Virus record (IMG/VR): IMGVR_UViG_3300031413_000001
Strand: one strand, 5' to 3'
DNA length: 64,000 nt
Source of the DNA: a virus
Taxonomy: Duplodnaviria; Heunggongvirae; Uroviricota; Caudoviricetes
How positions within the stretch are numbered: position 1 is the stretch's first letter; each line of letters opens with the position of its first letter. The notes under the pieces were generated by a model. The model searched no databases. It was not told the DNA's origin and saw only the letters and a list, made by a program, of their open reading frames with translations. A program made the translations under genes and the position numbers. Positions 3,649 to 36,525 of this stretch are shown piece after piece.

Positions 3649-3978
3649 TTATTTGCCTCGAAGCCAGGCCCAGAAACCCTTTTTGGCGATGTTTTTGGCA
3701 ATGACCGCGGTGGCCTTGGCCTCAAAGAGTTTTCCCTCAGGGCCACACATTCCTTTCTGGGAGCGAACGTTGGCACACTCTGGCAGCTTGACATCGTAGC
3801 CACCATGAGGAGTGAATGTCTCGAGACGCGCCAGCTCATTGGTGCAGTAGTCGAAATTGGACACACCGCCCAGCCAGCTTTTCCAGTATTTGCACTGGTG
3901 ACAGGGACCGGGCCAGTTGAGTGTGTCCTGCTCAGCCTTCTTCAACGCCGCTTGGGCTCTGGCTAAAAGGTCACTCAC
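3649..3978 (-). CDS. Cys-rich hypothetical protein
   Basis: CHQC...C...C...CGPEG; 4-nt overlap with upstream gene. Confidence 0.75.
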   Translation of the reverse strand: MSDLLARAQAALKKAEQDTLNWPGPCHQCKYWKSWLGGVSNFDYCTNELARLETFTPHGGYDVKLPECANVRSQKGMCGPEGKLFEAKATAVIAKNIAKKGFWAWLRGK

Positions 3979-4844
3979 CGCTTCAATTTCTCCATCATCA
4001 GCTTGGTGCTGAGCACCTCGTTTTTGTCAAACTTCATCAGCGCCGGATTGTGCTGACCAGTCTTGGTCGCGTGGCTGCTGACTTCTCCCTGCAGCCGCAC
4101 TTCCTTTTTGTCAAGGATGGTCTCAGCGGTGATGAAACCGCTGGTGTGGGTTCTTTTCAGACGTGCGATCACCAGCTCATCGCGGCGCGAATAGATGAAC
4201 ATGTCACCGATTGCCAGCTCGTTGCCGAACATATCCAGGGGAACGCAGGGCAGGAGATCAACCTTCTTGGCCTTTTCCTCCTCGGTCTTGGGAGGCTTTT
4301 TGGCAAACAGATAGACCGTTGGTCCCACGTGATTGGGAAGGATCTCAAGGCCGGCTTGGTCGCCCCAGTTAGTAGCAACAGGCTTTCGACCATCGAACTC
4401 GTAACGAAGCGTCTTTGAACCGTCCTGCTCAATCCACTCCATCATGTAGATTTCCAGCAGGTTGGGCTCCCTGATACCCATGAAGCCCGACTTGCTTTCG
4501 CGGATGAAGATGTTGGGATCCGTTGGCAATGTTCCTTGGCGGATGATATTGTAAGCGGGGCCCTTGGGAACTGAACTTATGTTGCGGAGTTGAAGACAGT
4601 CGCGCTCGATCTTTGCGATGCTGCCGGCCCTTGCACCACTGTGGATCTTGGCATAGATGGGCCGACCAGCCTTGAAGTCCTCGACCATCTTGGCCATGCC
4701 CTGGATGAGAAGCTGGCGATTGGCGATCACATTCTCGATCGTCTCGTCGGACTGGTCAGCGTACCGTCCCCGGTAGATGTCGCCCTTGAGATTTCCTATC
4801 TCAACCATCGTATCAGGGTTGTTGTGCAAATGGTACCACGACAT
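3975..4844 (-). CDS. Hypothetical protein
   Basis: 289-aa ORF, TGATG coupling. Confidence 0.85.
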   Translation of the reverse strand: MSWYHLHNNPDTMVEIGNLKGDIYRGRYADQSDETIENVIANRQLLIQGMAKMVEDFKAGRPIYAKIHSGARAGSIAKIERDCLQLRNISSVPKGPAYNIIRQGTLPTDPNIFIRESKSGFMGIREPNLLEIYMMEWIEQDGSKTLRYEFDGRKPVATNWGDQAGLEILPNHVGPTVYLFAKKPPKTEEEKAKKVDLLPCVPLDMFGNELAIGDMFIYSRRDELVIARLKRTHTSGFITAETILDKKEVRLQGEVSSHATKTGQHNPALMKFDKNEVLSTKLMMEKLKR

Positions 4845-5500
4845 CAGTTGTCATCCTCTTCCGAATAAGTCCCACCCTCGCTCCAGAGGTACTGCCTGAT
4901 TTCCTTCAAGCATTCCAGAAGCGAACCAGTAATCCGAGCCCTGCCCCAGCTGCGATCGATGTCACGGTGATCAAAGATCGCCCACTCGTCGCCCTGGATC
5001 CACGCCAACTTCCAGTCGTTATAGCGGGAAAGAGTGTGCTCTGCAATGTTAAATCCGCGCATCAGGTCAGTCTTGACCGCTGCGCCCTTGCTGGTCAGCT
5101 TGAGCGTTCCCTCGAACATTCCGGGGCGGATCACGGGCAGGACGCTTTCGATCAGCTGGCTCAGGGTCACCAGCTTGTCGTCATCCCACTTGTGGTTGAC
5201 CGCAACCGTGAGGCAGTTCTGATCCGTCCGGCACCAGTGACCGCCACCATTCCGCAGACCAGATCCCTGCCATGCGCCCTTCCAGGAAAGCTGCGAGAGA
5301 TACGCATCGCCGCGCTTGTTCCAGCCGCTGGCCACATTGGTTTCCAGAGCCTTCTCCAGCGTCATCGCTTCCTTGGCCTCTTCGGCCAGCTGGGCAGTGG
5401 TGAAAGCATTGTGGGCGATGTGGAAGTTGTCCTGGGCCCTCTTGAGAGCATCGCGGGCTCGATCAAGATTTGCCGTCAGTTGTTCGATCGTCTTCGCCAC
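4844..5500 (-). CDS. Hypothetical protein
   Basis: GTG start after SD GAGGAG and promoter 5528-5554. Confidence 0.85.
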   Translation of the reverse strand: MAKTIEQLTANLDRARDALKRAQDNFHIAHNAFTTAQLAEEAKEAMTLEKALETNVASGWNKRGDAYLSQLSWKGAWQGSGLRNGGGHWCRTDQNCLTVAVNHKWDDDKLVTLSQLIESVLPVIRPGMFEGTLKLTSKGAAVKTDLMRGFNIAEHTLSRYNDWKLAWIQGDEWAIFDHRDIDRSWGRARITGSLLECLKEIRQYLWSEGGTYSEEDDN

Positions 5501-5551
5501 CGCGTTTCTCCTCGTTGTCTGCATTCTGGATAGCAGACCTGTCCTGGTTGT

Positions 5552-5998
5552 CTACCAGAATCTCTTGCGCGAGTAAAAAGAAAGCGGATCCATTAGGCGC
5601 ACGTGATCCCTGCTCTTGCCCTTTAAGTCCTCGTAACATTCGCACATGAACTCGGGGCTGGTTCGAGCATCGGGGACAATGGGCTTGCAGATCTTCTTCA
5701 TGCCCGATTCAATGAAGTGGCAGATTTCCGCCTTGTTGGTGCGATCTCGCCAAGTACCATCACGCATCTGATACTTGAGTGCCGCGCATTGAACTCGACC
5801 CTTTTTGTCAAGCCCAACGTTGTTGAAACAGGAAACACATTGACTTGGACGTTGAGGCCCAAAGTAAGCCTTTTCCCATTGACAGGCCCGGCAATAACCA
5901 ATGCAATCGGACACCGTGCCGGAGGCAAATGGCACATCGCACCTCATGCAACGTGGAGCGGTACTAGAAACCGCTGGGGCTTTGGGACGGCTGCTCAT
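5552..5998 (-). CDS. Cys-rich putative zinc-binding protein
   Basis: Multiple CxxC pairs; TGATG coupling. Confidence 0.65.
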   Translation of the reverse strand: MSSRPKAPAVSSTAPRCMRCDVPFASGTVSDCIGYCRACQWEKAYFGPQRPSQCVSCFNNVGLDKKGRVQCAALKYQMRDGTWRDRTNKAEICHFIESGMKKICKPIVPDARTSPEFMCECYEDLKGKSRDHVRLMDPLSFYSRKRFW

Positions 5999-13489: not shown

Positions 13490-13667
13490 TTTGCCAAACT
13501 CCTGTGTGCGTTTCCGATGTACCAGAAGTAGCACCAAGTAAGAGCCAGTCAACCAGAATAAGAGCCACTTTCCAACTCTTTTATTAACCCTAACAGGTAT
13601 AGTTAATGGGTCCAGGGTTCAAGGAAATGGGGAGAGTGGATCCACTCTCCCCATTCTTAATCCAGAT

Positions 13668-14948
13668 TTAGCTTCCCATTGCAGCCATACCCACAACATA
13701 GTTGAACGGCACCTGCGGTCCAGTAGTGGTATTGATGTTTGGTGTTCCTGGAAGGACCATTGAATCAGTGGTTCCTGCAAAGGTATATCCAAACGGACGC
13801 TGTGAAGATGCGCCCGTTCCGTTGTTACCAAATACCAAATATCCATTCTTATAGAACATATTGGTGTATTGTGAATAAGCTGCTCCATTGCTGCTCATAT
13901 TGGTAAAGCCAGTCTGAGTCCAATTGATACCATCGTTACTGGCTAGGTAGTAGGCAGTAGAGGAGCTCGCGGTGTTGTTGCGGTTCATCGCGGCATACAG
14001 GGTACCATTTGCATAAACGACATCGTGAACGTAATGGCCAAGAATGTGTCCAGCGACTGTATTGCAAGCGGACCAGTTGACTCCATCATTGCTTACCATG
14101 AATGGAATACCAGCGGTATAGACACCGGCAGCAAGCCATAGCCCATTTACCCTGGTTATCATTGGACTCACGTAGTTGCTGACTCCATTGCTTTTTCCAG
14201 TGCTATCCGTTACTGGGATCCAAGTTGCACCAAGATCACTTGAACGCCATCCATAGATATTGACTGAACCACCTTGGGCAGTGTTTCCAAGGTTACCAAT
14301 GAAGATGTCACTTCCACTATCTTGTACCTTGGTAAAGTTTCTCAAATAGTGTCCGTTTGTTGAATCATAAACAAATGAGCCCCTAGCCGGAACGAGAAAT
14401 AGTGTCCACGCCAGACCATCAGCCGACCTTGCAACATACTGGTTTACTGGAGATGTAGAGCCTACATCTCCAAGCAACATCTGCATCCAAAAGTAACCGT
14501 TGGAAAAGCTCAGCTTTCCCATGACCTGATTGGTCGTTGGTGTTGTAGGAAGCACCGTTCCGCTTGGCAAAGTCAAAGTTACCGCACCGCTGTTCTGAGT
14601 AAATGCTGTATAGTTGACGCCATCAAGGCTTTTACGGACCACCAGAGCACTGTTGGGCATTGTGGAGTATGCACCACCGCCCTGAATCATGCCACCACTA
14701 CTGTTGGTGTCTCGGTTGGTGTTATTGTTGGTAAGAATCAACCACTGACCATTACCATAGACGCAATCCCAACCGCCCTGACCATTGCGGGTTGTCCACG
14801 AAACCAAGTCAGGACTGGTATAGGCATGGTTGCCATCAATGACCATGTAACGTTCTACGCGAGTGTTATTGACCGTGATGCCGAAGTTACGATCAGCATA
14901 AGCACCGTCACTGTCGGTTGCCCTAACAGTAAATTGAAAGTTTGCCAT
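13668..14948 (-). CDS. Virion Asp-box (BNR) beta-propeller protein with N-terminal Ig F-G hairpin; putative receptor-binding subunit
   Basis: Repeated SxDGxxW motifs; N-terminus FQFTVRATDSDGAYADRNFGITV. Confidence 0.8.
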   Translation of the reverse strand: MANFQFTVRATDSDGAYADRNFGITVNNTRVERYMVIDGNHAYTSPDLVSWTTRNGQGGWDCVYGNGQWLILTNNNTNRDTNSSGGMIQGGGAYSTMPNSALVVRKSLDGVNYTAFTQNSGAVTLTLPSGTVLPTTPTTNQVMGKLSFSNGYFWMQMLLGDVGSTSPVNQYVARSADGLAWTLFLVPARGSFVYDSTNGHYLRNFTKVQDSGSDIFIGNLGNTAQGGSVNIYGWRSSDLGATWIPVTDSTGKSNGVSNYVSPMITRVNGLWLAAGVYTAGIPFMVSNDGVNWSACNTVAGHILGHYVHDVVYANGTLYAAMNRNNTASSSTAYYLASNDGINWTQTGFTNMSSNGAAYSQYTNMFYKNGYLVFGNNGTGASSQRPFGYTFAGTTDSMVLPGTPNINTTTGPQVPFNYVVGMAAMGS

Positions 14949-14959
14949 GTTTAGTTCCT

Positions 14960-16123
14960 TTACTGAACAGTGATAGTGTAAGCGCGAAGACTATACGCCT
15001 GAATATTGTCTATGACTCTAATGGTAAAATTGTAGAGGCCACTTTGCACATACTTAGTATTGGCAATGGTGCCACTGATCTTACCCGTACTGTCAATGGT
15101 CAAACCAATAGGGAGGCTTCCACTGTTGATATGAAGACGAGCCGTTCTACCCGAATAGGGATTAATGGAAAACTGGCCATTGACCGCGGTGCCCTTAGCA
15201 AACGATCCAATACTTCCACCATCGGTCATCAGCATCAGAGTCTGACCATTTACCACCAAGGAGTTATTGAGAATGGGATCCTTGGTACGATCATAGAAGA
15301 TAGGATCGGTAACCAGTTTGACTTCCGCACAAGTGCCGGAAATTACACCGCTTTTGGGTTCAAGATTCAATCCCCAGGGCAGCACGCCGTTGACCACTCG
15401 GTAGTTGCTAATAGTCTTGCCACTCTGACCAGTTGCTGCCATTGTGATCGTATTACCGTTGGCTCCCGACAACGTATCATTTTCGTTGAATACTTTAATC
15501 GTACCAGGGAGAGTAGTCCAAACCGGCGGAGTTAGGATGCTTGGACTTAGGCCAACATCAAAACCTGGGTTTAGTATTTCCGATGTTGAGCCAGTGATTG
15601 CACCTGTGCGAGGATTGAGCCTTAGACCCCAAGGCATGCCGCCACTAACAACCAAATAGGATTGGATTGTCTTGCTACCCTGAGGAGTTGCCGAAAAGGA
15701 TAGGTTTACTGTTGCGGTTTCACTGAATACGCCCAAGGTACCAAACGTCGTGTTCCACTTCGGTGGATTAACATTGGTGGCATCGGCAATCTGACTTCCC
15801 TTGAACTCACCAACCTTACCACTGATCACGCCGGTTTTGGGATCCAGTCTGAGACCCCAGGGAAGTGGTTTGTTACCAACAACTGCCACACCAGCTATCG
15901 TTTTACCAGCGCGGGGATTAACCACCAATGCAGGCAAACTAATGGTGTCGGTAACGTTTGCTGTTACCAGAATGGTATCCGCGTCTGGACTACTCCAAAT
16001 GGGACCCTGACCAACGTTTTCGGGACTGAGGTTTCCAACCAACTTACCAGTTGTGGATTCCATTGTGACACCTACGGGAAGATCACCTCCCTGAAGGCTA
16101 TATTGTATCTGACCTTTAGCCAT
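14960..16123 (-). CDS. He_PIG/putative Ig repeat virion protein
   Basis: Five LPxG[LV]x[LMI]xxx[TS]Gx[IL]xG repeats. Confidence 0.85.
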   Translation of the reverse strand: MAKGQIQYSLQGGDLPVGVTMESTTGKLVGNLSPENVGQGPIWSSPDADTILVTANVTDTISLPALVVNPRAGKTIAGVAVVGNKPLPWGLRLDPKTGVISGKVGEFKGSQIADATNVNPPKWNTTFGTLGVFSETATVNLSFSATPQGSKTIQSYLVVSGGMPWGLRLNPRTGAITGSTSEILNPGFDVGLSPSILTPPVWTTLPGTIKVFNENDTLSGANGNTITMAATGQSGKTISNYRVVNGVLPWGLNLEPKSGVISGTCAEVKLVTDPIFYDRTKDPILNNSLVVNGQTLMLMTDGGSIGSFAKGTAVNGQFSINPYSGRTARLHINSGSLPIGLTIDSTGKISGTIANTKYVQSGLYNFTIRVIDNIQAYSLRAYTITVQ

Positions 16124-16580
16124 TACTGTTTGCCATTACCCTTCCTGAGTAATCAGCACCGCTGTTACCCTGTCCAACATTACCGCTTGGTGTTACCCAA
16201 TTGACCTGCGTTCCAACATCCTTGACCACCAGATTGAACTCCCGGTCAGTAAAGAGGTTGGTGCGATCCGTAACCCTAGCAGTAAAGGTGTAGGTTGTGT
16301 CTTGACCAACCTGACCAATTGTTCCCAGCAAGTGGCCCGAGATAGCATTAAGTGAAACACCACTAGGCAAAGTTCCACTTTGAACACTATAGCTGGCAAT
16401 ATCACCATTGGGATCACTTGCGATCAGTGCGAAATCAATTGAGTCGCCTTCATTCCAAGCACCAATAAGTCCGGTTGGCGTATCCCATACCGGAGGATTG
16501 GCAACAGTGGGTGGGCGATAGATTCTTTTGAAATGGACTCTACCTCTGGGCCTGTAATGGCCAATCAATTTGATACTCAT
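16116..16580 (-). CDS. He_PIG/putative Ig domain protein
   Basis: One full Ig repeat plus a C-terminal half repeat; SD GGAGG before ATG 16580. Confidence 0.85.
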   Translation of the reverse strand: MSIKLIGHYRPRGRVHFKRIYRPPTVANPPVWDTPTGLIGAWNEGDSIDFALIASDPNGDIASYSVQSGTLPSGVSLNAISGHLLGTIGQVGQDTTYTFTARVTDRTNLFTDREFNLVVKDVGTQVNWVTPSGNVGQGNSGADYSGRVMANSNG

Positions 16581-16599: not shown

Positions 16600-16632
16600 C
16601 CTATTTACCACTTCCGGCCCGTAGGTAAATAT
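16600..16632. promoter_or_regulatory. Back-to-back late promoters (TAAATA on both strands)
   Basis: GGTAAATAG (minus) and GGTAAATAT (plus) between divergent structural genes. Confidence 0.7.
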
Positions 16633-16652: not shown

Positions 16653-18659
16653 GTGGCAAACCTTTGGAAGTCTCCAGCAAGTGGAAAGCTCTTGAATGGT
16701 GGACAACCATGGCGACGTGGTGACCAGGTAGATCTTCTCCTCGAATTCAACAACAGTCCACAGAGGATTGACCTGATCGGCGGCGACCTGCCACCAGGTC
16801 TAAACTTCAATGGCGCTACTCGACGCATCTATGGAACCATCTTGGCTCTTCCCAAAGACCAGGACAGCTATCCCGTGGTCTTTCGTGCTGTCAGTGCTTC
16901 CGATCCAACCAAGACCTTTGATCGATCCTACAAGTGGATCGTGGACCCCAGGGATGAGGAACAGAGCTGGGCAATGCCCGCTGGTCTTCAGGACCTTGGT
17001 GCGGTAAACCGTGGCTCAAGTGTCAACATCCAGCTGGACATTATCAACCCCGATATGGACAACCTGACCTACAAGGCAATGGGTGTTCGTACTGGTATCC
17101 CAGGTACCCACGAGGGTCTTCCAAATGGTCTGGCAGTTGAGCAAGCGCAGCCTAATATTGTTCGCATCATTGGATCGCCAACGGTTACTGGCAACCAACC
17201 TGGTGCCTACTATTTTAAGGTGTACGCTCGCGATCCCGATGACGTGGCACGCAATCCCCATGGCGAGGGTGCGCCCCGTACCTCAGAGAAAACCTACAGG
17301 ATCACACTCAATTCAGAGATCGTCCTGGATGCCCGACTCAGTGATACGGTTAGGTGGGAGACTCCTGCGGGAAGCCTAGGATCCACTTATGAGACCTATC
17401 CTAGTCACTTTGCAGTCAAGGCAGTACCACAGTATCAGGTAAACGGAAGCAACAACCTGGAAGTGCAGATCATCCGCTACACCTTGACCGGCAGGAGCAA
17501 TCCACTTCCCGATGGTCTCCTCCTTGATCCTAACACTGGACTGATACTTGGACGTTGCCCCTACGTGGTAACCAATACTTCCTTTGAGTTCAAGGTTGAG
17601 GCCCGAGTGGTCTTTCAAAACCAGATCACTGGTGAGGTTCGCCAGAGCAGCGTGGCAAGCGAGCGCAGCTTTAGCGTGACCATTCGCAGCATCTTTGCCT
17701 CCGATAGCGTGACAACCTTGCAGGTAAATGTTCCCGGCGATGCACGGAGAAAGATCGTCCGGTGGATTTGGGGCAACACCGCAGAGCTCCGCGAACCATC
17801 GGCCAAGGCACCACATGAACTAACTTTGTTGGGACGTGACAACAACTTCCGACCCAGCGACCAATTGTTTGGTAAGAAAAAGGAATACAACATCCTGGTA
17901 GCCGCCGGCTTGAATTATGTTCAAGATGGTAGCTTTTTGGACAAACTCAAGGACTATCACCATCCAACCACTTGGAGGATTGGAAAGCTGGCCAGCAGTC
18001 GCGCCAGGAGTCCAGAGGGTGTCCACCTCTATGATGTACTCTACTTGACGGTTATTGATCCAATGTCGGGTGCCGGTGGATTTGATGCTGGAAACAAAGA
18101 GGTAACTCTATCTCGTTACCAGTCAGGGCAAAAGCAGACGGCAATTCCTGTGATGAACCTATCCAAGGAAGACAGCCATTACTTTCCCAATAGTATCCGT
18201 AACATGCGGTTGGACATGCAGAGCAATCGCAACCGACAGGACTGGACAGAACAGGCTCAGACTGCAGGAACGCGCGGCTATGGACTGGTTGGTCGAGAGG
18301 GTTTGCCACTCTGGATGATGAGTGAGCAGGAAGCTGGAAAGCCAGCAACCATTCCTGGATACCAAACTGTCATTGAGCTGGCGTATGTTAAGGCAGGATC
18401 GGGTCCTGCACTGGTAAGAGCCTTGGAGCAAGCAGGATTCAACGAGGACTTGCAGGGTACGACTATCTCGGTGGATAGATACCTTCTCCTAAGTGATGGC
18501 TTTACCTCGACCACTTTTGATTTCGATCCAGATACTGGTGCGCTGACAACCTTTGATGGTCCCGACAATGCGGAGAACCGTACCACTCAGCTGACTTCCT
18601 TTGATAAGGTACTCCAGTCTGAGAGTAAATACTACAAGTTTCCGCTAGGTGACAAATAG
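16653..18659 (+). CDS. Ig-repeat structural protein, putative baseplate component
   Basis: Three He_PIG-like repeats, 668 aa, late promoter. Confidence 0.75.
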   Translation: MANLWKSPASGKLLNGGQPWRRGDQVDLLLEFNNSPQRIDLIGGDLPPGLNFNGATRRIYGTILALPKDQDSYPVVFRAVSASDPTKTFDRSYKWIVDPRDEEQSWAMPAGLQDLGAVNRGSSVNIQLDIINPDMDNLTYKAMGVRTGIPGTHEGLPNGLAVEQAQPNIVRIIGSPTVTGNQPGAYYFKVYARDPDDVARNPHGEGAPRTSEKTYRITLNSEIVLDARLSDTVRWETPAGSLGSTYETYPSHFAVKAVPQYQVNGSNNLEVQIIRYTLTGRSNPLPDGLLLDPNTGLILGRCPYVVTNTSFEFKVEARVVFQNQITGEVRQSSVASERSFSVTIRSIFASDSVTTLQVNVPGDARRKIVRWIWGNTAELREPSAKAPHELTLLGRDNNFRPSDQLFGKKKEYNILVAAGLNYVQDGSFLDKLKDYHHPTTWRIGKLASSRARSPEGVHLYDVLYLTVIDPMSGAGGFDAGNKEVTLSRYQSGQKQTAIPVMNLSKEDSHYFPNSIRNMRLDMQSNRNRQDWTEQAQTAGTRGYGLVGREGLPLWMMSEQEAGKPATIPGYQTVIELAYVKAGSGPALVRALEQAGFNEDLQGTTISVDRYLLLSDGFTSTTFDFDPDTGALTTFDGPDNAENRTTQLTSFDKVLQSESKYYKFPLGDK

Positions 18660-22710: not shown

Positions 22711-23469
22711 ATGGCAATGAAGTTCACAGGAGCGTTCCGCCCCATTGGAAAGCTGATCAGCCGCGAGGCACCAAGCAAGGTAGTCATCGTACCTCCGCTT
22801 GCCTTTACCTCCACACCAACTATCACTGGCACCAGGATAGGTGATCCATTCAAGGTCAACTGGACTACCAATAGAGTACCCGACACGGTAACTTATGAGT
22901 GGCTGGTTGGTGGAGTAACGGCTAAGTTTGCCCTAAACAAAGACATCTATTACCCCAATGCCACCACCAACCTACAATGCAGAGTAACAGCAACCATTGG
23001 AACCGAGACAGTAAGAGCTATATCGGGTATTAAGAGTGTACTTGTTCAGAGCGGCACCGCTGTCTTCTCTGATGCATTCGAGGGTAATGGTGTGTGGGTG
23101 GTAAACTATGGTGCGGCCAACATTGTTACAAGCCCACTGGCCCTACAGGGATCCAGGATGCTAAGGCTGGATCCGGTAGCATCGGGTAATCCATCGGACA
23201 TAACAACTGGGTACTTCAACGCATTGCCGGGCAGTACCAGCTATAGGGTTAGGGTGTGGGCACGCGCGGAAAGCCAACCCACACAGTTACACCTGCTGGT
23301 CTATACTAACTCGGCCTATGCCGTGAACACCACAATAGATCTCACCACTGAGTGGAAACCTTATGATTTCAATTTTGTTACCGGCAATCAAATGTTTGTT
23401 AGGTTGATCTCTCAGAAGACGAACAGTCCAGCAATGTTTGTTGATCAGGTTTCCGTTAGCCAACTTTGA
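22711..23469 (+). CDS. Ig-like plus carbohydrate-binding (CBM4/9-like) virion protein
   Basis: YRVRVWAR...LTTEWKPYDFNF...FVDQVSV pattern. Confidence 0.65.
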   Translation: MAMKFTGAFRPIGKLISREAPSKVVIVPPLAFTSTPTITGTRIGDPFKVNWTTNRVPDTVTYEWLVGGVTAKFALNKDIYYPNATTNLQCRVTATIGTETVRAISGIKSVLVQSGTAVFSDAFEGNGVWVVNYGAANIVTSPLALQGSRMLRLDPVASGNPSDITTGYFNALPGSTSYRVRVWARAESQPTQLHLLVYTNSAYAVNTTIDLTTEWKPYDFNFVTGNQMFVRLISQKTNSPAMFVDQVSVSQL

Positions 23470-24810
23470 TAAACCAAACTGAGTAAATGAAAAGGGTTAA
23501 TGAAAGAATATGATTCTGAAAAACGTGAAGGGCCGAGGGTATAGAATCCCAGAAACTTCATAATCCTCAGATCGCCTTTATCACGCGTATCAAATTTTTG
23601 ACATTCCCTGTAAGGTTTTTTCAAGCAACCTATAGTGCCTCTATAGTGGAGTAATAGTTCTCCCATAGTGCCGCTATAGTGTTGACATGGTGCTTCCATT
23701 GTGGAGGGTCCTGATCCCAGGAGCCCGTGATTTTCCCAAAACTACCCGTGAAATCCGCCGAACAGCCCGTGATTTTGGGCGAGCATGCCTGCGGCTGGGC
23801 GAGCAGTGGAAGGAATTTGCCCGTGAGAGTGGCCCCAAAAGCTGGTCTAGAGTTGAGCAGAGTAGCGCAAAAATTTGAACAGATCGCCCGCAAAACGCCC
23901 GCAGAGTTGGTCTATAGTTGAGTAGAGTTCCCGTATAGTGGAACAAAAGTGCCCGCGAGAACGTGCCCAATAGTGCCTCTATAGTGGAGTAAAGCTGCTC
24001 ATAGAATGCTCACTACCTTAGAAAAACCTCCAACCATGCCCGCGCAAAATGCTAGGCGCGGAGCGCGACTTCAAAGTGGCACTGTACGCTTTTTCATATC
24101 TTTGATCCACCATCAGATAGCCACCCCCATATTACCAATCACAGTAGTGGAAACACCTATAGTAATGCTCTATAGAGAATCCATGAAGTTCCCTATAGCA
24201 TAGACTCTAGTGTAGACTATAGCTGTGACTCATATAGCCAAGACTATAGTAGAAGCCATAGTAGAAGGTACTATAGACAGAGTTCAGACACTATGGATCC
24301 ACTATACACGGACCCTGGACGTCAGGAGTTCACCTAGAGGACGCTCCCAGGAGCGTGGAAAAAGGTGTCAAATCACGTCAAATCTATATGTGCGGCGAAA
24401 GAATTATTATTGATTTAATACCTGTTAACTATGCCAAAACTTGCTCAAAAGTCGCAGATTTGCGTGGCTTTTGACACGCTATAGTGTTCAATAAATGCTC
24501 ATAAAAGCACGGTAATTCAGCTTTATTATGCCATAATAGCCTTTTACTGTGCCTTTCACGTATCGCGCATATCTGTCACCAGAGTTAGCCCAGAGTACAC
24601 CAGAGTGTGCCTCGCTATAGCTATCACTGGAGTTCCTCTATAGTGTGTTCTATAGTGGGAAACCAGAGTTTCCGCTATAGGGAGAGTTTTTCAAAGTCTC
24701 CACTAGGGACAAAATAGTTGAACCCGTGTGTTCTCCTCTATAGGGATAGAGTTGACTCCTCTATAGAGAGTCTCTATAGGGGTGGATATGACTGCCAGTG
24801 TCTCTATAGA
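23470..24810. repeat. Non-coding repeat-rich region, putative origin or genome-terminus/packaging site
   Basis: About 20 CTATAG palindromes, 23-bp direct repeat (23632, 23970), 4x CCCGTGA, AT-rich patch about 24400-24550. Confidence 0.7.
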
Positions 24811-25045
24811 GTATCATGAGGATAGTGAGGATCTGTGTTATCAGACCGTTACCAACCCCTCTAGTGGAAACTTGGTATCGGGTTTTGGTCCTGGGCCCTG
24901 TATGACTCGGTGGTTAGAGGAGCATGGTGGGCGTTATCGCTGCTCCACGGTGTTTGATGCTCAGTATAGTTTCTACCCTGAGGCTCTGGAGATCGAGTTT
25001 CAGGACTCTGCCTGTGCTCTTTTGTTCAAGTTGACTTGGGGTTAA
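24788..25045 (+). CDS. LFKLxW-family protein 1
   Basis: ends FQDSACALLFKLTWG. Confidence 0.85.
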   Translation: MTASVSIEYHEDSEDLCYQTVTNPSSGNLVSGFGPGPCMTRWLEEHGGRYRCSTVFDAQYSFYPEALEIEFQDSACALLFKLTWG

Positions 25046-25068
25046 CTCTTCCTCTATAGAGAGAAAAC

Positions 25069-25290
25069 ATGGAAGTCCGCATCCCTGTTCAGGCCTACAT
25101 GGTAATCGGCACCTATAGTAGTGAGTTGCTTCCCGACATAGAGGAATGGTTTATCAGAAACCGTTTTCACGAGGGTGTTCACTGGTGGTTTGACTTTGAT
25201 TTCAACAGAATTGGGGTGGATTCCCTTGTCTTTGAGAAGCGGAGGATTGCTCAGCTGTTTCACTTGACGTGGTGTACCTTTCCCCTATAG
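25069..25290 (+). CDS. LFKLxW-family protein 2
   Basis: FEKRRIAQLFHLTW. Confidence 0.85.
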   Translation: MEVRIPVQAYMVIGTYSSELLPDIEEWFIRNRFHEGVHWWFDFDFNRIGVDSLVFEKRRIAQLFHLTWCTFPL

Positions 25291-25299
25291 AGCGGAAAC

Positions 25300-25518
25300 A
25301 TGACTGAGTGGCACAACTTCCCTATAGGGATGGAACTTCACATTGCGGTTCAGAACTGGCTACTGGAGCATGTGGGTGCTCAATCGCTATCCAAGCTGGA
25401 CACCACTGGTGAGTGGTTTTGGCGAGTAAACGTTCGCCCTGAGGAACTGGATGACCGCCTGATAGTCAGCATCCGCGACCCCCAGAAGGCCATGCTGTAC
25501 AAGTTGACTTGGGGCTAA
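25300..25518 (+). CDS. LFKLxW-family protein 3
   Basis: IRDPQKAMLYKLTWG. Confidence 0.9.
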   Translation: MTEWHNFPIGMELHIAVQNWLLEHVGAQSLSKLDTTGEWFWRVNVRPEELDDRLIVSIRDPQKAMLYKLTWG

Positions 25519-25541
25519 CTCTTCCTCTATAGAGAGAAAAG

Positions 25542-25793
25542 ATGACCTATAGTGACACCTTCACAGCCAGCGTTCCTCTTGAGAAGGGGTTCTTCACACC
25601 TGCTCTAAAGGGGTGGTTTGTGGCCAATGGTGTGCCCATTGTTGAAGAGGGTTTTCCCGTCATTGGCGAGGGCCTGGGTTGGGACGCTTGGGTAAGTCAA
25701 CGCCCCGTAGAGGGATTGAATAGCGTTCGCTTTCGCTTCAAAGACAAGGGTATCGCCATGTTGTTCAAGCTCACGTGGCATGATTTCCAGTGA
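25542..25793 (+). CDS. LFKLxW-family protein 4
   Basis: FKDKGIAMLFKLTW. Confidence 0.9.
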   Translation: MTYSDTFTASVPLEKGFFTPALKGWFVANGVPIVEEGFPVIGEGLGWDAWVSQRPVEGLNSVRFRFKDKGIAMLFKLTWHDFQ

Positions 25794-26083
25794 GTGAGAT
25801 AGCGGTGTCCTCGGACTTCTTTGAGATCAGGTCCGATCCCCACTATTATGAACTGGACATGGGTTGTGGTATCCATCGTGGACGCCCCTATGTTCGATTG
25901 TGGGATGACCTCTGCACCATCTATGTTCTGCAGGATCCCATGCATCAGTGGTTGGCGGATCGAGATGTCTTCTATGGAATGGACATTGACATAATCAGCG
26001 GCGATTCCCACGTGGACATTCCTGATCAGCGTGCCGCTATGTTGTTCAAGCTGACTTGGTATGGGGTCATTGATGCGGCGTAG
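25790..26083 (+). CDS. LFKLxW-family protein 5
   Basis: IPDQRAAMLFKLTW. Confidence 0.9.
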   Translation: MSEIAVSSDFFEIRSDPHYYELDMGCGIHRGRPYVRLWDDLCTIYVLQDPMHQWLADRDVFYGMDIDIISGDSHVDIPDQRAAMLFKLTWYGVIDAA

Positions 26084-26312
26084 AAAGTTTAGATACCGTG
26101 TACTGATTCCCTTTGAGTCATACCATGGGGAGAGGAATGGCATCTGGGACTGGCTTGAGGCGACCGTTGGGCGGGTCCTAAGTGAGCAGAATCCCTATGG
26201 TCAGTGGACTGGTGGGTTCTCCAAGGACGAGGTCCTTGGAGTTGAATCCTATGAGTTCACCTTTGAAGATCGGAGAACTGCCATACTGTTCAAGCTACTT
26301 TGGGACCACTGA
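26073..26312 (+). CDS. LFKLxW-family protein 6
   Basis: FEDRRTAILFKLLW. Confidence 0.9.
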   Translation: MRRRKFRYRVLIPFESYHGERNGIWDWLEATVGRVLSEQNPYGQWTGGFSKDEVLGVESYEFTFEDRRTAILFKLLWDH

Positions 26313-26578
26313 TGCACAACGTTCACCTGATAGTCAAAGAAGACCACTACGATCCCTCGGGTCCTGGGGTTGTGTGGTGGAATCTGGCCAGCGACTACAA
26401 TGAGGGCTATCGTGCAACCGATGGCTTTTGGGAGTGGATCAACCAACAAGGCGTTGAGGTCGATGAGTGGGATATCATTCAGGACTACGACGATGGCAAT
26501 GATGTGGTGCCCGGCCAGGTGGTCTTCGCGTTCAAGGATCCCGTGATTGCCCTACTGTTCAAGCTAACTTGGGGATGA
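26312..26578 (+). CDS. LFKLxW-family protein 7
   Basis: FKDPVIALLFKLTWG. Confidence 0.9.
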   Translation: MHNVHLIVKEDHYDPSGPGVVWWNLASDYNEGYRATDGFWEWINQQGVEVDEWDIIQDYDDGNDVVPGQVVFAFKDPVIALLFKLTWG

Positions 26579-26796
26579 GCAGCAGCTATAAGGCTCATCA
26601 TGATCACCACGAGATTTGGATCATGAATGGTGTGAGCAAGATGACGCCAGAGATCCGTGCGTGGCTTGATGAGTTCGCGGGCAAAAAGTGGCTGGGCAGT
26701 ATGGGTGCTGGATCTATGAATGGCAATCGGGTAGGCATGATGCATAACTTTTCCTGCAAGGAAACTGCCATGCTCTTTAAATTGACGTGGGGATAA
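26575..26796 (+). CDS. LFKLxW-family protein 8
   Basis: FSCKETAMLFKLTWG. Confidence 0.9.
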   Translation: MSSSYKAHHDHHEIWIMNGVSKMTPEIRAWLDEFAGKKWLGSMGAGSMNGNRVGMMHNFSCKETAMLFKLTWG

Positions 26797-26817
26797 GTCC
26801 ACTCCTATAGTGAGTCT

Positions 26818-27099
26818 ATGTATGAACTCTCGATCATGCTCCCAGGAGCACTTGGAAATTACAATCGCCGACACACTCCTCTTCCCCGAGGATTGGAGTG
26901 GGGAAAGCCCCGAGGATACCAGATAGTTCCAACTGATGAGCTATGCGAGTGGCTTACTTCTTTTACCCGTAGCCACGCTACCATTGAGTTGCTTCATAGA
27001 AACTCCAGTGTTTGGGAGCCTCACCGAGAAGTCATTGGAGTTTCCTTTGGTTTCCTGGAAGCCTCTGATGCCCTCCTGTTTAAGTTGACCTGGTTATGA
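26818..27099 (+). CDS. LFKLxW-family protein 9
   Basis: FLEASDALLFKLTWL. Confidence 0.9.
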   Translation: MYELSIMLPGALGNYNRRHTPLPRGLEWGKPRGYQIVPTDELCEWLTSFTRSHATIELLHRNSSVWEPHREVIGVSFGFLEASDALLFKLTWL

Positions 27100-27335
27100 T
27101 TGGTGTGGAAGTCAGTAACGATCTGATTAAGATGGCAAAGGATGATCTCCACTACGTTCTAAGGGATGATGTGGTCAATTGGCTGCATGTTCATGCAGGG
27201 ACTGGAGATTGTAGGGGAGGGTGGTCTCCTGATTGCGATTGGCTCTGGACCTACAAGAGCGTGGACTACCGAGGGGCAGCCGTGGTGTTCAGTGATGCCA
27301 AGGCCGCCATGTTGTTCAAGTTGACTTGGGTATAG
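27096..27335 (+). CDS. LFKLxW-family protein 10
   Basis: FSDAKAAMLFKLTWV; shares GGWSxxCxWxW with member 14. Confidence 0.9.
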   Translation: MIGVEVSNDLIKMAKDDLHYVLRDDVVNWLHVHAGTGDCRGGWSPDCDWLWTYKSVDYRGAAVVFSDAKAAMLFKLTWV

Positions 27336-27356
27336 TTCTGCTCTATAGAGGGGAAG

Positions 27357-27617
27357 ATGGCTAGACGGCGTCCTCAAACTTCCTGGCTGGTAAGCATTCC
27401 CAGCAGCATCATGCCAAGTACGTGGGCCAATATGAATGGCGATCTCGATTGGGAGATCGACCTGTGGTTTGAGGAACTGGGTCTTGAGTGGCGACGTGAT
27501 TGGTGGATGGCTATGAACCCCTCCTACCGTCACGACCTGGCATTTCAGGATCGCCGGACTGCCCAACTGATTTTTCTTCTCGTGGAAAGCAGGGCTGATG
27601 AAAATACAAGTTCATGA
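27357..27617 (+). CDS. LFKLxW-family protein 11 (degenerate motif)
   Basis: FQDRRTAQLIFLL. Confidence 0.75.
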   Translation: MARRRPQTSWLVSIPSSIMPSTWANMNGDLDWEIDLWFEELGLEWRRDWWMAMNPSYRHDLAFQDRRTAQLIFLLVESRADENTSS

Positions 27618-27909
27618 CATTGGTATCCCCTGGTGGCCCTGGAACTACCGCTATCGAGTGACGGCCATTGGAAAGCCCAAGGTGGATGCCCCCGCGTTGG
27701 GCTATGACAACAACCTCTTTGATCTACAGGATAGGCTGGGCTGGGAACCCAACTACGATTATCTTCGTCCAGATATTCGGAACTGGCTCCATGATAGCTT
27801 GAACTACATGGACTGGACCACCGAGCATCCCAATGATGCTGGCGAGGAGTGTGGGATCCTTTTCCGGCGTCGTAAAGACGTGATGATGTTCAAGCTGGCT
27901 TGGGGCTAA
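27598..27909 (+). CDS. LFKLxW-family protein 12
   Basis: FRRRKDVMMFKLAWG. Confidence 0.9.
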   Translation: MKIQVHDIGIPWWPWNYRYRVTAIGKPKVDAPALGYDNNLFDLQDRLGWEPNYDYLRPDIRNWLHDSLNYMDWTTEHPNDAGEECGILFRRRKDVMMFKLAWG

Positions 27910-28187
27910 TGGATATCGTAGCACATCGTCGTGAGTGCGATAGGCTACTAAAAGCCGGTATCAGAGTGGCGATCGCACCCCAGCATATAATCAATGGTTT
28001 CAATCAGATATCTGAAGAACTGATCCAGTGGCTTCTTGAACGTGGTTACACCACTGGTGGCATCACGCCTGATCCATATAGGATCTGGGCAGGAAGCCGA
28101 CCCAATGCTCGAGAGCCCAACGCTGCGGTAATATTTCATCCCAGTCAAGCACAGGATGCACTCTTGTTTAAGTTGACCTGGGGATGA
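27909..28187 (+). CDS. LFKLxW-family protein 13
   Basis: DALLFKLTWG. Confidence 0.9.
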   Translation: MDIVAHRRECDRLLKAGIRVAIAPQHIINGFNQISEELIQWLLERGYTTGGITPDPYRIWAGSRPNAREPNAAVIFHPSQAQDALLFKLTWG

Positions 28188-28438
28188 ATAGCGTGGTTCC
28201 TATTCCCGACAGCCTCCTATATAGGGACACTCATCCCTACAGTAGTGGATGGTGGATTCGCCAAGACATCTTTCAGTGGTTGACCACCTTTGTGGGACGT
28301 GGAAATCAAGCTGGTGGTTGGTCCGGGGAGTGTGAGTGGATCTGGGTTTACGCATTCGTTGATGGGCAACCCACCAACAATGCAATATCCTTCCAGGATC
28401 CCAAAGCTGCCATGTTGTTCAAACTCACATGGGCGTAG
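28184..28438 (+). CDS. LFKLxW-family protein 14
   Basis: FQDPKAAMLFKLTWA. Confidence 0.9.
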   Translation: MNSVVPIPDSLLYRDTHPYSSGWWIRQDIFQWLTTFVGRGNQAGGWSGECEWIWVYAFVDGQPTNNAISFQDPKAAMLFKLTWA

Positions 28439-28662
28439 AATACAACATCATACTCAGCGACAAGGTTGCCTATAGGGAACACCACTGTACGGAAAGTCCC
28501 TGGGGAAGTTATCAGATATTCAACCCCGAGATAGCCGAATGGCTAGATGCCCGACTCGCTCCCAACAAGTGGGACCACGACATTGACTTTGACACACAGA
28601 ACTGTATCGTGACCATAGAGGACAAGGATGTGGCACTGTTGTTCAAGTTGACCTGGGTATGA
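28429..28662 (+). CDS. LFKLxW-family protein 15
   Basis: IEDKDVALLFKLTWV. Confidence 0.9.
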   Translation: MGVEYNIILSDKVAYREHHCTESPWGSYQIFNPEIAEWLDARLAPNKWDHDIDFDTQNCIVTIEDKDVALLFKLTWV

Positions 28663-29027
28663 TTGAGTGGACGTTCGTGCAGCTCTATGGCCTCCGGTAT
28701 TTTTCCCGGCAAGGTTTTAGCTCAGCCACTTCACCAGTTCATCGCTGGCGACCTGATGGTCGACCGGCAACCTTTGGCGTCGCCATTGCCGACCATGTGT
28801 TCGAGTGGCTAGATGCCAATTGCAAGGGTAGGTGGTACCACGTAACCAATCGTCAATTCACCACCATTGAACAGATAACTGTTACCCGCGATGATCAGGA
28901 AGAGCTTCGCTTGGCTCGCAAACTCAATCTCGTGACTGATGAGATGCGTGACAAGTTCCGCAGCATCCGCGAGATTGCCTTTGAATTGAAGAGCGACGCG
29001 CTCATGTTCAAGCTGAGTATTGCCTGA
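28659..29027 (+). CDS. LFKLxW-family protein 16
   Basis: FELKSDALMFKLSI. Confidence 0.85.
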   Translation: MIEWTFVQLYGLRYFSRQGFSSATSPVHRWRPDGRPATFGVAIADHVFEWLDANCKGRWYHVTNRQFTTIEQITVTRDDQEELRLARKLNLVTDEMRDKFRSIREIAFELKSDALMFKLSIA

Positions 29028-29257
29028 TGGGCATTCGTGTTCACTGTGATCTTTCAAAAGCCTGCGAGTGGCTTGAGGCAAGAAATCGACGGGGTGGGTA
29101 TTGGAAAGTTCGCCCCGAAGTTCTTGACTTCATGGATAGTCGAGGGATTCCTTTTCGATCCAATGCCAGCCTCAGTGAGCAGGACTGGTCAGTGGTATTT
29201 CCCGATGAGTTTGCCAGGGATGCCATGTTGTTCAAACTAACGTGGGGTGGAAAGTGA
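29027..29257 (+). CDS. LFKLxW-family protein 17
   Basis: DAMLFKLTWGG. Confidence 0.9.
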   Translation: MGIRVHCDLSKACEWLEARNRRGGYWKVRPEVLDFMDSRGIPFRSNASLSEQDWSVVFPDEFARDAMLFKLTWGGK

Positions 29258-29514
29258 GCGACCTGTGGGGCGACACGCTGAGCAAGAGCATGGAGTGGTA
29301 CAACTCCTGCACGTTTGTCCGCGTTCCAACAACTAGCTTGAATGATGCTCTTTCCTGGTGCGTGGAAAAGAAGGGCCTGAGCGGCCACGATCGACTGTAT
29401 AGTGAGGACAGAGTTGGTTGGGGTTGGACTTCTGGTCCAACCAGCGACGTGTGGGTCTTTTACTTTCAGAACGATCCTGATTTTGCCATGCTGTTCAAAT
29501 TGACTTGGGCGTGA
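29254..29514 (+). CDS. LFKLxW-family protein 18
   Basis: FAMLFKLTWA. Confidence 0.9.
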   Translation: MSDLWGDTLSKSMEWYNSCTFVRVPTTSLNDALSWCVEKKGLSGHDRLYSEDRVGWGWTSGPTSDVWVFYFQNDPDFAMLFKLTWA

Positions 29515-29534
29515 ATACTCTATAGGGAGGATTA

Positions 29535-29834
29535 ATGATCACCTTTCCTCTCACCGACAAACAGATCTACAGCCTGTCTGAGGACACCTCAAATCCTTGG
29601 GTAGCGGTCCTGGATGCGATGAAGACCTGGGCCAAGGAGATGAATCTTCAGTATATCCCCAGTGGATCCACGTTGAAAGAATTGCCTCCTGGGCATTGGT
29701 GTGTGAAAAGCTACAATTACGACCAGAGGCGACGTGAAGGTGGCGGTGGCATCTGGAATCACCGGATGATCTGCTTCAACGATGCGGATGCCAAACACGC
29801 CATGATATTCAAACTTCGTTGGGGCGGGCAGTGA
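29535..29834 (+). CDS. LFKLxW-family protein 19
   Basis: HAMIFKLRWGG. Confidence 0.9.
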   Translation: MITFPLTDKQIYSLSEDTSNPWVAVLDAMKTWAKEMNLQYIPSGSTLKELPPGHWCVKSYNYDQRRREGGGGIWNHRMICFNDADAKHAMIFKLRWGGQ

Positions 29835-30115
29835 AGCAGCAAGTCTTTTGGGTTCCCAGCGATATAGACCTCCCAAAGGTAACTGTCGTGACACTCCACG
29901 ATCCCAGTGGTGAGAAGATTGCCGATTCAGTCATGTGGGCAGGAGAGCGCCTGGGACCCAGCAACGGCAACGGTGGGGATATCAGAGGCAAGAACTGGGA
30001 CTTCACCCCTGGATGGCTGGCGCAGTTTGGTAGCAAGGATCTACATTTTTACTTTGGTGACGAAGTGGATCGTGATACCATCGTCTTGTTCAAACTTACA
30101 TTTGGTGGTCGATGA
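29831..30115 (+). CDS. LFKLxW-family protein 20
   Basis: IVLFKLTFGG. Confidence 0.9.
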   Translation: MKQQVFWVPSDIDLPKVTVVTLHDPSGEKIADSVMWAGERLGPSNGNGGDIRGKNWDFTPGWLAQFGSKDLHFYFGDEVDRDTIVLFKLTFGGR

Positions 30116-30426
30116 CTAGCGCGACTGTTGAGCTGCCCTGGGAGCGACTGGTTGATTGGGGGATGGGAATCACCCTAAAGCAGGAAGTCCTGGACTGGCT
30201 CCAGGCAAACATTGGCCTGGGTGATAGTCGTTGGTGGAACAGTGTTGTGGAATTGGTCTTTCACCTTGACCACTGCGAGAACGATGGGCCGGGTTGTATC
30301 TCCTCAGGAGAGCAATGCGTGGGTCATGAGGACTGGGGCTGGTCGATCGGTACAAGGAGTGGGAAAGGCTTCTTTGTGTTCCGGGATCCTGCCCACGCGG
30401 TCATGTTCAAGTTGACTTGGGCATGA
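30112..30426 (+). CDS. LFKLxW-family protein 21
   Basis: KGFFVFRDPAHAVMFKLTWA. Confidence 0.9.
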   Translation: MTSATVELPWERLVDWGMGITLKQEVLDWLQANIGLGDSRWWNSVVELVFHLDHCENDGPGCISSGEQCVGHEDWGWSIGTRSGKGFFVFRDPAHAVMFKLTWA

Positions 30427-30656
30427 GGGAAGTTGAACTATCGCTGGAGCGCCTTCGCGAGATCAACGAAGAGATCAACAAGGTAAAGGCAGTTCAGACC
30501 TATCTGATAGAGTGGTGCGTGGAACATGTCAAGGAACGACCTATCAGCACCATCGTGAGCAAGCCCGCAGTTTATAATAGTGTGGAGTTTAGGGGAATCA
30601 TGTTTGAGTTCCGTGAGCCCCAAAATGCCATGATGTTCAAATTGAGGTGGGCATAA
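30423..30656 (+). CDS. LFKLxW-family protein 22
   Basis: FREPQNAMMFKLRWA. Confidence 0.9.
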   Translation: MREVELSLERLREINEEINKVKAVQTYLIEWCVEHVKERPISTIVSKPAVYNSVEFRGIMFEFREPQNAMMFKLRWA

Positions 30657-30892
30657 TGCCCTTGATGTCAGTGGTCATGCAAACTCATCCCGTAATCGTC
30701 AGTATGCCCATGGATCAGAGCGACGATCACTGGATTGAAATAGATGATTGGATCTCCAGCAAAAACCTTGATGTCATTTGGAGTTCCAACGTGGACACCT
30801 CGGGTATCGCACCATTTCCATTCCTGCGCCACTTCTGTTTTAAGACGGAAGACCGGGAGGCAGCCATGCTGTTCAAACTTACATGGCTATAA
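30656..30892 (+). CDS. LFKLxW-family protein 23
   Basis: AAMLFKLTWL. Confidence 0.9.
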   Translation: MPLMSVVMQTHPVIVSMPMDQSDDHWIEIDDWISSKNLDVIWSSNVDTSGIAPFPFLRHFCFKTEDREAAMLFKLTWL

Positions 30893-31101
30893 CTGTGGAA
30901 ATCTCCGATCGCGGAGATTGGAATACCGTCTATAGGGAAGCATCCAATTGGATGGTGGACCACTTTCCAGATCTTTGCCTTCCAGTCACAGATCCCAAGC
31001 GGGTCTATAATGGTTGGGACGTGTCTTTTGGTCTTGACACCATACAGTTCTATTTTGAAGATCCTCAGGTTGCTATGTTGTTCAAGTTGACTTTTGCCTA
31101 A
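30883..31101 (+). CDS. LFKLxW-family protein 24
   Basis: FEDPQVAMLFKLTFA. Confidence 0.9.
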   Translation: MAITVEISDRGDWNTVYREASNWMVDHFPDLCLPVTDPKRVYNGWDVSFGLDTIQFYFEDPQVAMLFKLTFA

Positions 31102-31121
31102 CCTGGCTTTACGATACAGGT

Positions 31122-31430
31122 ATGGAAACGCACCACTCCTGGAAATCCTTTATCGCCCAGGGGCGAGCATGGCGTGCCGTGGCCGAGTGGTCCAGTGAGT
31201 TCTTTGATCGAATTGAAGACGAGCAATATGACGACTATGATGTCTATCCCCTGAGGGAAGATGTCAGAGCATGGTTGGATAAGTTGCCTCGTGGTCGATG
31301 GTGGGTTGAAAGTCCCGATGGCACTGGTCTCATAGACATCACGGGCCCACGATGGATGCGTCCCATCTACTTTCGTTTTCGTCGAGACCTAATGCTGTTC
31401 AAGTTGAGGTGGGACCATGGTGCGAAATAA
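31122..31430 (+). CDS. LFKLxW-family protein 25
   Basis: DLMLFKLRW. Confidence 0.9.
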   Translation: METHHSWKSFIAQGRAWRAVAEWSSEFFDRIEDEQYDDYDVYPLREDVRAWLDKLPRGRWWVESPDGTGLIDITGPRWMRPIYFRFRRDLMLFKLRWDHGAK

Positions 31431-31641
31431 AGACTTTCCCAACAAGGTAACCATCCGGCTTCACCGCTTGGAGTTTCAGGCTCTTCTAGCTTGGCTTCAT
31501 GCAGCTGGGCATGAGTTGCGCGTCACGATGAAGTTTGGTGACAACCAGCACAAGAGCGCGGATCCTGACCACCTTCAGCAGGACATCTTGTTCAAAGATC
31601 GAAAGGACGCCATGTTGTTCAAGCTGGCGTGGTATCGATGA
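31417..31641 (+). CDS. LFKLxW-family protein 26
   Basis: FKDRKDAMLFKLAW. Confidence 0.9.
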   Translation: MVRNKDFPNKVTIRLHRLEFQALLAWLHAAGHELRVTMKFGDNQHKSADPDHLQQDILFKDRKDAMLFKLAWYR

Positions 31642-31901
31642 TTCAGTTCATTATCAAAGATTACCACGTGTGGGGAAACCGCAACGAGGAACTCGCACCA
31701 CCACGTCTCCCCTATGAGGTCCAGGATTGGCTCAACGATAGCGGGATCACGGAGTATGGATTGGAGTGGAAGCACAATGAAAAGGCTTCCCTGGGAAAGC
31801 ACCAAAAGGCACAGGTGTTTGAGACCCACATCCTCTTTTACAAGAACAGCGATGGTATGATTTTCAAGCTTCGATGGTACCACCACATACAAAATGCTTG
31901 A
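31638..31901 (+). CDS. LFKLxW-family protein 27
   Basis: DGMIFKLRW. Confidence 0.9.
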   Translation: MIQFIIKDYHVWGNRNEELAPPRLPYEVQDWLNDSGITEYGLEWKHNEKASLGKHQKAQVFETHILFYKNSDGMIFKLRWYHHIQNA

Positions 31902-31906
31902 GCACA

Positions 31907-32197: not shown

Positions 32198-32218
32198 CAG
32201 TTTTTTACCGGTCATTGC

Positions 32219-32747: not shown

Positions 32748-32765
32748 AGACTGCTAGGACGTGGC

Positions 32766-34025: not shown

Positions 34026-34029
34026 AGCC

Positions 34030-34060
34030 TATTTAATGGGTGGAAAATCTCCTTAAATAT
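34030..34060. promoter_or_regulatory. Back-to-back late promoters
   Basis: TAAATA on minus (34030-34035) and plus (34054-34059). Confidence 0.6.
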
Positions 34061-34085
34061 TCTGTACCCCAAAAGGAGATCGATC

Positions 34086-36510: not shown

Positions 36511-36525
36511 TAACCCATTATGGGG

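Follow-up and report, generated by a model that had tools for sequence, protein, structure and literature searches.

Three consecutive genes in a 64-kb stretch of DNA (the window), which is part of a jumbo phage genome of about 464 kb, raise the question of how a virion might use immunoglobulin (Ig)-like units that lack part of their fold. The genes, here designated A, B, and C, lie at the margin of a structural region with tail fiber and gp9/10-like genes, and their closest cultured relatives are found in the jumbo phages Atu_ph07 and Phosso. An earlier note on this DNA had pointed out that most repeats of B lack a terminal hairpin, with which the propeller protein C begins, and had proposed that the hairpin of C completes the open units of B. 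Such complementation proved to be the best explanation, since the three genes tile one Ig model exactly, plug and sockets co-occur in every locus, the hairpin is conserved, the sheets of the predicted B monomer are incomplete, and the predicted complex passed its mark, albeit in the weak range; binding itself is a prediction. We assign a probability of roughly three in four to the view that A, B, and C form a branched virion fiber to which three or four propeller heads are attached by hairpin complementation.

The He_PIG family (PF05345) of Pfam was matched above the gathering score by both B (93 bits) and A (50 bits; cutoff, 24 bits), and B was found to comprise five He_PIG stretches. Unit boundaries were taken from a hidden Markov model (HMM) of 92 positions, the seed of which consisted of intact units only and included neither a C head nor a B-type socket unit, and which was scanned against the window and all fetched loci. 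This HMM was used in place of a regular-expression classification of the units, which missed many true hairpins. The resulting features are listed in Table 1.

Table 1. Genes, protein segments, and DNA elements of the A-B-C cassette (positions in the window; model positions refer to the 92-position Ig HMM)
Feature	Position	Strand	Description
Gene A, 154 aa	16116-16580	-	One intact Ig unit, preceded by a basic N-terminal peptide and followed by the opening strands of a second unit
Gene B, 387 aa, scaffold	14960-16123	-	8-nt overlap with A
Gene C, 426 aa	13668-14948	-	F-G hairpin plug and Asp-box beta-propeller; own AGGA ribosome site
TAAATA box	16602-16607	-	22 nt before gene A
Second TAAATA box	16626-16631	+	Faces divergent 668-aa Ig gene
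Perfect 30-bp palindrome	13626-13655	none	Just after C; candidate terminator hairpin
A residues 1-20	16521-16580	-	Conserved basic N-terminal peptide; candidate virion anchor
A residues 30-122	16215-16493	-	Intact He_PIG unit with own F-G hairpin; model positions 2-91, 109 bits; Pfam E value, 5e-13
A C-terminal tail, ~28 residues	16116-16205	-	Strands A, A', and B of the three-chain unit, by alignment
B residues 3-34	16022-16117	-	Strands C, D, and E only, head of the three-chain unit; model positions 31-61; no Trp, short linker
B unit 2, residues ~41-107	15803-16003	-	Socket without F-G, PWG; match stops at model position 62
B unit 3, residues 121-183	15575-15763	-	Socket without F-G, PWG; model positions 2-62, 41 bits
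B unit 4, residues 200-268	15320-15526	-	Socket without F-G, PWG; model positions 2-62, 40 bits
B unit 5, residues ~283-387	14963-15277	-	Intact cadherin-like Ig cap; HMM match to position 89
C residues 2-28	14865-14945	-	F-G hairpin plug; model positions 64-90, 22 bits
C residues 34-424	13677-14849	-	Beta-propeller of probably seven blades, with closure by the C-terminal strand

A seven-stranded sandwich within a single chain is present in the A unit and in unit 5 of B, both of which contain the F-G hairpin, as the earlier note had stated, but not in units 1 to 4 of B, from which F and G are missing. Specifically, the sockets lack model positions 63 to 90, i.e., both strands, and the missing strands are found on a separate chain in exact register, as judged by the HMM in 26 loci. 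B, in other words, carries sockets without a plug, and C carries a plug without a socket. Of the four repeats that had been described as lacking only the hairpin, the first also lacks strands A and B, which leaves three canonical sockets and one unit divided among three chains. For this unit, the three genes cover the Ig model nearly without overlap (positions 2 to 28, 31 to 61, and 64 to 90 from A, B, and C, respectively), and the tails of A homologues match positions 2 to 28 in L004, L007, L009, L014, L029, and L045. The PWG motif, previously considered distinctive of three incomplete repeats, is present in units 2, 3, and 4, and C does open with the missing hairpin fused to an Asp-box propeller; the hairpin motif itself required correction, as its Asp and Arg are separated by seven residues, not six.

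The TAAATA box before gene A appears similar to a late promoter of the T4 type. The divergent gene faced by the second box (16653-18659, plus strand) encodes a protein of 668 aa in which three He_PIG units, apparently intact, are accompanied by a C-terminal domain; the homologous region of Atu_ph07 and Phosso is part of a protein of 1,250 to 1,290 aa annotated as S8 peptidase. TAAATA boxes were also seen 20 to 40 nt before several structural-looking genes (16602, 16626, 18626, 41786, 43959, 53562, and others); over the whole window, 13 such boxes were counted versus 11 expected, i.e., there is no enrichment. In the nearest relative (L009), which shares 46% of 31-mers with the window, a TAAATA box precedes both A genes, again at a distance of 22 nt, and the boxes at this position in the two phages suggest late expression. 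The second A-B-C cassette of this relative (L009, 6357-9460) has its own TAAATA box; at the corresponding place, the window, which contains one plug gene, has only the palindrome, and the absence of the second cassette from this phage indicates that cassettes are gained or lost as blocks. The palindrome was not picked up by a terminator scan.

Searches of PHROGs and NCBIfam with A, B, and C returned no match, and no tRNA gene was found within the window; in Phosso, a tRNA with a CTA anticodon (L079, 13732-13807), annotated as tRNA-Pyl, is a possible amber suppressor. Elsewhere in the window, a protein of 252 aa that matches CBM_4_9 weakly (22711-23469, plus strand) has an N-terminal peptide resembling that of the A proteins. 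Its start was the best non-A match to the N terminus of A among 1,534 starts searched (E value, 0.004), and the common peptide is possibly a virion-anchoring element shared by several appendages. The region from about 24800 to 40800 contains few large open reading frames over a long stretch, several small ones ending with an FKLxW-like motif, and at 43999-46246 (plus strand), tandem paralogues of 340 and 400 aa, nearly identical in their C-terminal halves, are followed by a 1,202-aa beta-rich protein.

The A-B-C layout recurs in more than 25 phage loci, including that of Atu_ph07. Across 26 loci, 111 truncated units were counted, nearly all of which end at model positions 59 to 62, and 38 hairpin heads begin at model positions 60 to 66, whereas not a single unit in 20 bacterial multi-Ig loci ends before position 75. 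Clustered ends, matching plug starts, and the bacterial control together argue that the split did not arise by chance. In a second control, only 1 of 1,187 units was truncated in 133 long multi-Ig proteins, a set retrieved with a hairpin profile and therefore biased toward intact units; the gene of the one protein concerned is directly followed by a plug-propeller gene. A plug gene is present in all 26 loci with sockets, most of which were fetched with the plug as the query and many of which are close kin, so that they do not amount to 26 independent events; in the loci fetched from the scaffold side, a plug gene lies directly downstream as well. The scaffolds carry three to ten PWG-type sockets, and the genomes carry one to three plug genes. 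When ten genomes were searched as a whole, plug genes were found only beside scaffolds, with the exception of a broken remnant (L030). The search for other hairpin-led proteins that the earlier note had called for yielded only propellers inside such cassettes; with regard to other cargo behind the hairpin, the searches returned only intact multi-Ig proteins and propeller-type proteins of 340 to 400 aa.

Besides many uncultured phages, cassettes were found in Atu_ph07 (gp239 to gp241) and, twice, in Phosso (genes 350 to 353 and 679 to 681), where a distant third plug gene turned out to be part of the second full cassette. These cassettes of Agrobacterium phage Atu_ph07 and Sinorhizobium phage Phosso are orthologous to the one described here and cut at the same places, and their products are annotated as hypothetical or as "EF hand/PKD domain" proteins; our literature search found no paper noting the split. 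The RefSeq start of Atu_ph07 gp240 (L002, 8974-10065) is placed at 9049, 25 codons downstream of an ATG that overlaps the gp239 stop codon, and this upstream ATG is probably the true start, giving a frame of 363 aa that takes in strand C of the three-chain unit. Among GTDB genomes, the cassette was found on one contig only (L049, scaffold and plug at 3902-5972), which is binned in an Elstera metagenome-assembled genome; phage-like genes adjoin it, and the contig is probably a prophage or a mis-binned phage contig. The remnant mentioned above (L030, 6001-6585) is a plug-propeller gene cut to 194 aa in a locus without A or B, and with a full cassette present in the related L029, it looks like cassette decay by deletion.

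Several sequence marks set the truncated units apart from intact ones. Hydrophobic core positions are retained in the sockets to the same degree as in intact units, and in addition the sockets carry a Trp at model position 45 (the LPxG position) in 91 of 111 cases, compared with 9 of 115 intact phage units and none of 115 bacterial units, and a Glu at model position 16 in 88% of cases, compared with 35% of intact phage units. The linkers that follow sockets mostly comprise 11 to 14 residues, versus 0 to 4 in intact arrays; they begin with a short stretch, xE(L/I)K, that is conserved, are otherwise poorly conserved (21%) and predicted with pLDDT values below 50, and are too short to form a hairpin. 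The first unit of B deviates in having no Trp and a linker of approximately 7 residues, and its donor may differ from that of the other sockets. On the side of C, the plug is conserved better than any other part of the protein, with a median pairwise identity of 68% versus 23% for the propeller, and 8 of the 15 columns invariant among 53 homologues fall within residues 6 to 28. Couplings derived from about 1,200 intact units recovered the C-F and A'-G contacts, and the consensus residues of socket and plug form mostly favored pairs in this model. The summed coupling score was nonspecific, however, reaching 4.7 for socket and plug, 3.4 to 3.9 for sockets and the hairpins of intact units, and 5.1 for intact cores and the plug.

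AlphaFold2 was used to predict the structures of B and C. In the B monomer, only unit 5 displayed full sheets, with all strands paired and a pLDDT of about 90, whereas in the sockets, strands C and A' were left unpaired, at a pLDDT of about 80. Unit 5 superimposes on a domain of SraP (PDB 4M03) with a Z score of 10.4 and a root mean square deviation (RMSD) of 2.0 over 87 residues; a sequence search of the PDB found no close solved relative of B. The model of C (pTM, 0.84) features a hairpin (strands at residues 2 to 11 and 17 to 26) that is free from the propeller, and since the propeller achieves closure through its final strand, the hairpin does not belong to the blades. The propeller resembles 3B7F (Z score, 19.8; RMSD, 3.8 over 303 residues) and DUF6242_C/BNR proteins, and its repeated SxDGxxW boxes and closed fold identify it as an Asp-box (BNR) propeller. 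PDB matches of C are spread across many propeller families, and conserved columns among the 53 homologues are confined to the plug and the Asp-box positions. The proteins BppU and BppA, discussed below, were absent among the matches listed in the PDB sequence and fold searches.

The complex of one PWG socket with the plug, a check proposed in the earlier note, was predicted for B residues 116 to 190 (unit 3) and C residues 1 to 34. A score of 0.48 was obtained (0.47 to 0.48 in three runs), compared with 0.00 for the best control; at least 95% of the contacts agreed between runs, and the pLDDT of the partner was at least 69, versus 35 beside an unrelated chain. The mark applied, which is reached by 58 of 80 solved pairs and 2 of 110 mismatched pairs, was thereby passed, although in a weak range: among the pairs that reached it, scores of 0.60 or less are shared by only 7 of the 80 solved pairs and by both mismatches, and 0.48 was graded as weak support. 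The pairing was likely a priori, but since the halves of a split domain can pass such a test through their likeness to intact Ig folds, the prediction is consistent with complementation but does not prove it.

Ig domains are appended to phage structural proteins by frameshifting or readthrough, and a programmed event of this kind could fuse A with B, and also B with C, unless the split were simply an assembly error. The 8-nt overlap of A and B in the window sits at an exact strand boundary, and natural A-B fusions exist (L018 and L078); in these, the unit at the junction is of the ordinary hairpin-less type, which identifies the tail of A and the head of B as halves of one unit. However, the gaps between A and B range from -8 to +12 and fall in all three frames without a shared slippery site, those between B and C range from -4 to +15, and several gene orders are incompatible with a simple fusion, C being located between A and B in L031, A lying on the opposite strand in L029 and after C in L037, and a second B occurring without a preceding A in L012 and L013. 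A fusion of B with C, moreover, would put the hairpin behind a unit that is already complete and would fill no socket. At the protein level, gp239, gp240, and gp241 are all part of the virion proteome of Atu_ph07, a phage other than the one studied here (approximately 31% identity in B), with peak gel bands 11, 5, and 6, respectively (PMC6102473, Table S5). Peptides of gp239 smear across many gel bands, as might be expected of a fused product, but they peak in a low-mass band. The varying frames and gene orders, along with the different peak bands, argue that the pieces meet in trans. A frameshift fusion was rejected on account of the variable junction frames and gene orders, and this origin of the split is very improbable, being largely refuted.

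Separate chains could also be arranged differently. The five-stranded units might close each other, in which case B would form a homo-oligomeric fiber with the Trp at the B-B interface, and C would complete a single site, most likely the A/B unit, resulting in one head per fiber. The deviating first unit fits this arrangement, as do the weak complex score and the lack of the Trp in intact bacterial units, which would mark a new interface. We nevertheless regard it as unlikely, because the sockets keep the positions that couple to F and G in intact units and end exactly where C begins, because the unit that passed the complex mark was a canonical PWG socket rather than the first one, and because the scaffolds richest in sockets (five to ten; L001, L016, and L018) each adjoin two plug genes. 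It is quite improbable, too, that the truncated units are stable reduced domains built from five strands and a linker strand, with the Trp filling the gap, while the C hairpin either is vestigial after a gene split or docks at some other site of the virion. Such domains would account for the still considerable pLDDT of the socket monomer and for the conserved start of the linker. The linkers, however, mostly provide half a hairpin in length and show poor conservation and low pLDDT, a relic would hardly be the most conserved part of C, and the confinement of plug genes to scaffold-bearing cassettes in the ten whole genomes, apart from the L030 remnant, does not point to a role elsewhere.

In the branched fiber favored here, the basic N-terminal peptide of A would probably hold this protein on the particle as the base of the fiber. 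The end of A would contribute Ig strands A and B, to which the head of B would add strands C to E, so that the two proteins would lock by sheet completion. B next carries its three five-stranded units without F-G and then the intact cap, and each open unit is predicted to accommodate, between its strands A' and C, the F-G hairpin with which one C molecule begins. In the standard Ig topology, strands E and G leave the domain at one and the same pole; the loss of F and G would therefore keep the direction of the chain, and the propeller would exit beside the lengthened linker, the extra residues of which could provide space for it to hang sideways; the socket-specific Trp may clamp this hinge. 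The outcome would be three heads per fiber, or four if the A/B unit accepts one. Fast variation of the propeller, combined with the lack of conserved catalytic residues, suggests that the heads most likely bind host-surface glycans multivalently, and the earlier designation as an adhesin likewise derives from the fold and its variability.

The odds appear evenly balanced for a wider proposal, namely, that the cassettes follow a general branching grammar with a tunable number of 3 to 10 sockets, interchangeable side-branch propellers, and a three-protein Ig base, in which two or three plug genes give rise to mosaic fibers and which perhaps forms part of the whiskers of "hairy" Atu_ph07-like phages. 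Particles of Atu_ph07 bear capsid-associated whiskers, for part of which the cassette would be a candidate. If correct, complementation would supply a concrete assembly rule for "hypothetical" virion proteins in giant phages of soil and water, and valency (the number of sockets) and specificity (the choice of heads) could be tuned independently by gene duplication and exchange. The 28-residue plug and the 65-residue socket would also offer a compact split-Ig tag pair of natural origin for use in protein display.

With respect to known systems, the sockets share family and fold with the He_PIG (PF05345) cadherin-like repeats, such as those of SraP (4M03) and of long Ig proteins of uncultured phages, but ordinary arrays of this family consist of intact units joined by linkers of 0 to 4 residues. 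Our literature search found no paper on strand complementation in phages, only one review of bacterial surfaces, and neither tandem sockets on one chain nor a three-chain Ig unit was found in the literature searched, outside which most subscription journals fell. The closest published joint is that of the baseplate tripod of Lactococcus phage Tuc2009, where a C-terminal hairpin of BppU of about 25 residues completes the titin-like domain 2 of BppA, as seen in a crystal structure (PMC4742702). Here as there, a hairpin of one virion protein would complete an Ig-like sandwich and thereby attach a carbohydrate-binding module to a scaffold. The polarity is opposite, however, since in Tuc2009 the accessory protein receives a C-terminal hairpin from the scaffold, whereas here the scaffold would receive an N-terminal hairpin from the head; furthermore, there is one joint per BppU chain, compared with three to ten tandem sockets per chain plus a three-chain unit in the present cassettes.

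Fold complementation also builds surface fibers in the Elr/WxL pilus of Enterococcus (bioRxiv 10.64898/2026.10.17.759780) and in archaeal cannulae (PMC12518558). The tip adhesins of the Elr pilus are described as pairing a constant attachment module with a payload that varies, reminiscent of the conserved plug and variable propeller of C; both structures are linear polymers on cell surfaces with other folds, the adhesin is located at the tip, and the Elr pilus needs a chaperone. In the chaperone-usher pili (type 1 and P), an incomplete Ig fold is completed by the N-terminal segment of another chain (PMC9046445), and in this principle the analogy with pilin donor-strand exchange drawn in the earlier note holds. 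It does not extend to the details: a pilin lacks only strand G and receives one strand, whereas the sockets of B lack both F and G and would receive a two-strand hairpin. Pilins have groove and donor on the same subunit and polymerize, whereas here the two are on different proteins, C having no socket of its own, which would produce side branches on a chain of fixed length instead of a polymer. The pili moreover depend on a chaperone, an usher, and an exchange step, of which there is no sign here; no chaperone or usher gene was found among the eight neighboring genes. By analogy, the A-B-C cassette would work like donor-strand complementation, yet with two strands missing and with plug and socket on different proteins, it is not a chaperone-usher system.
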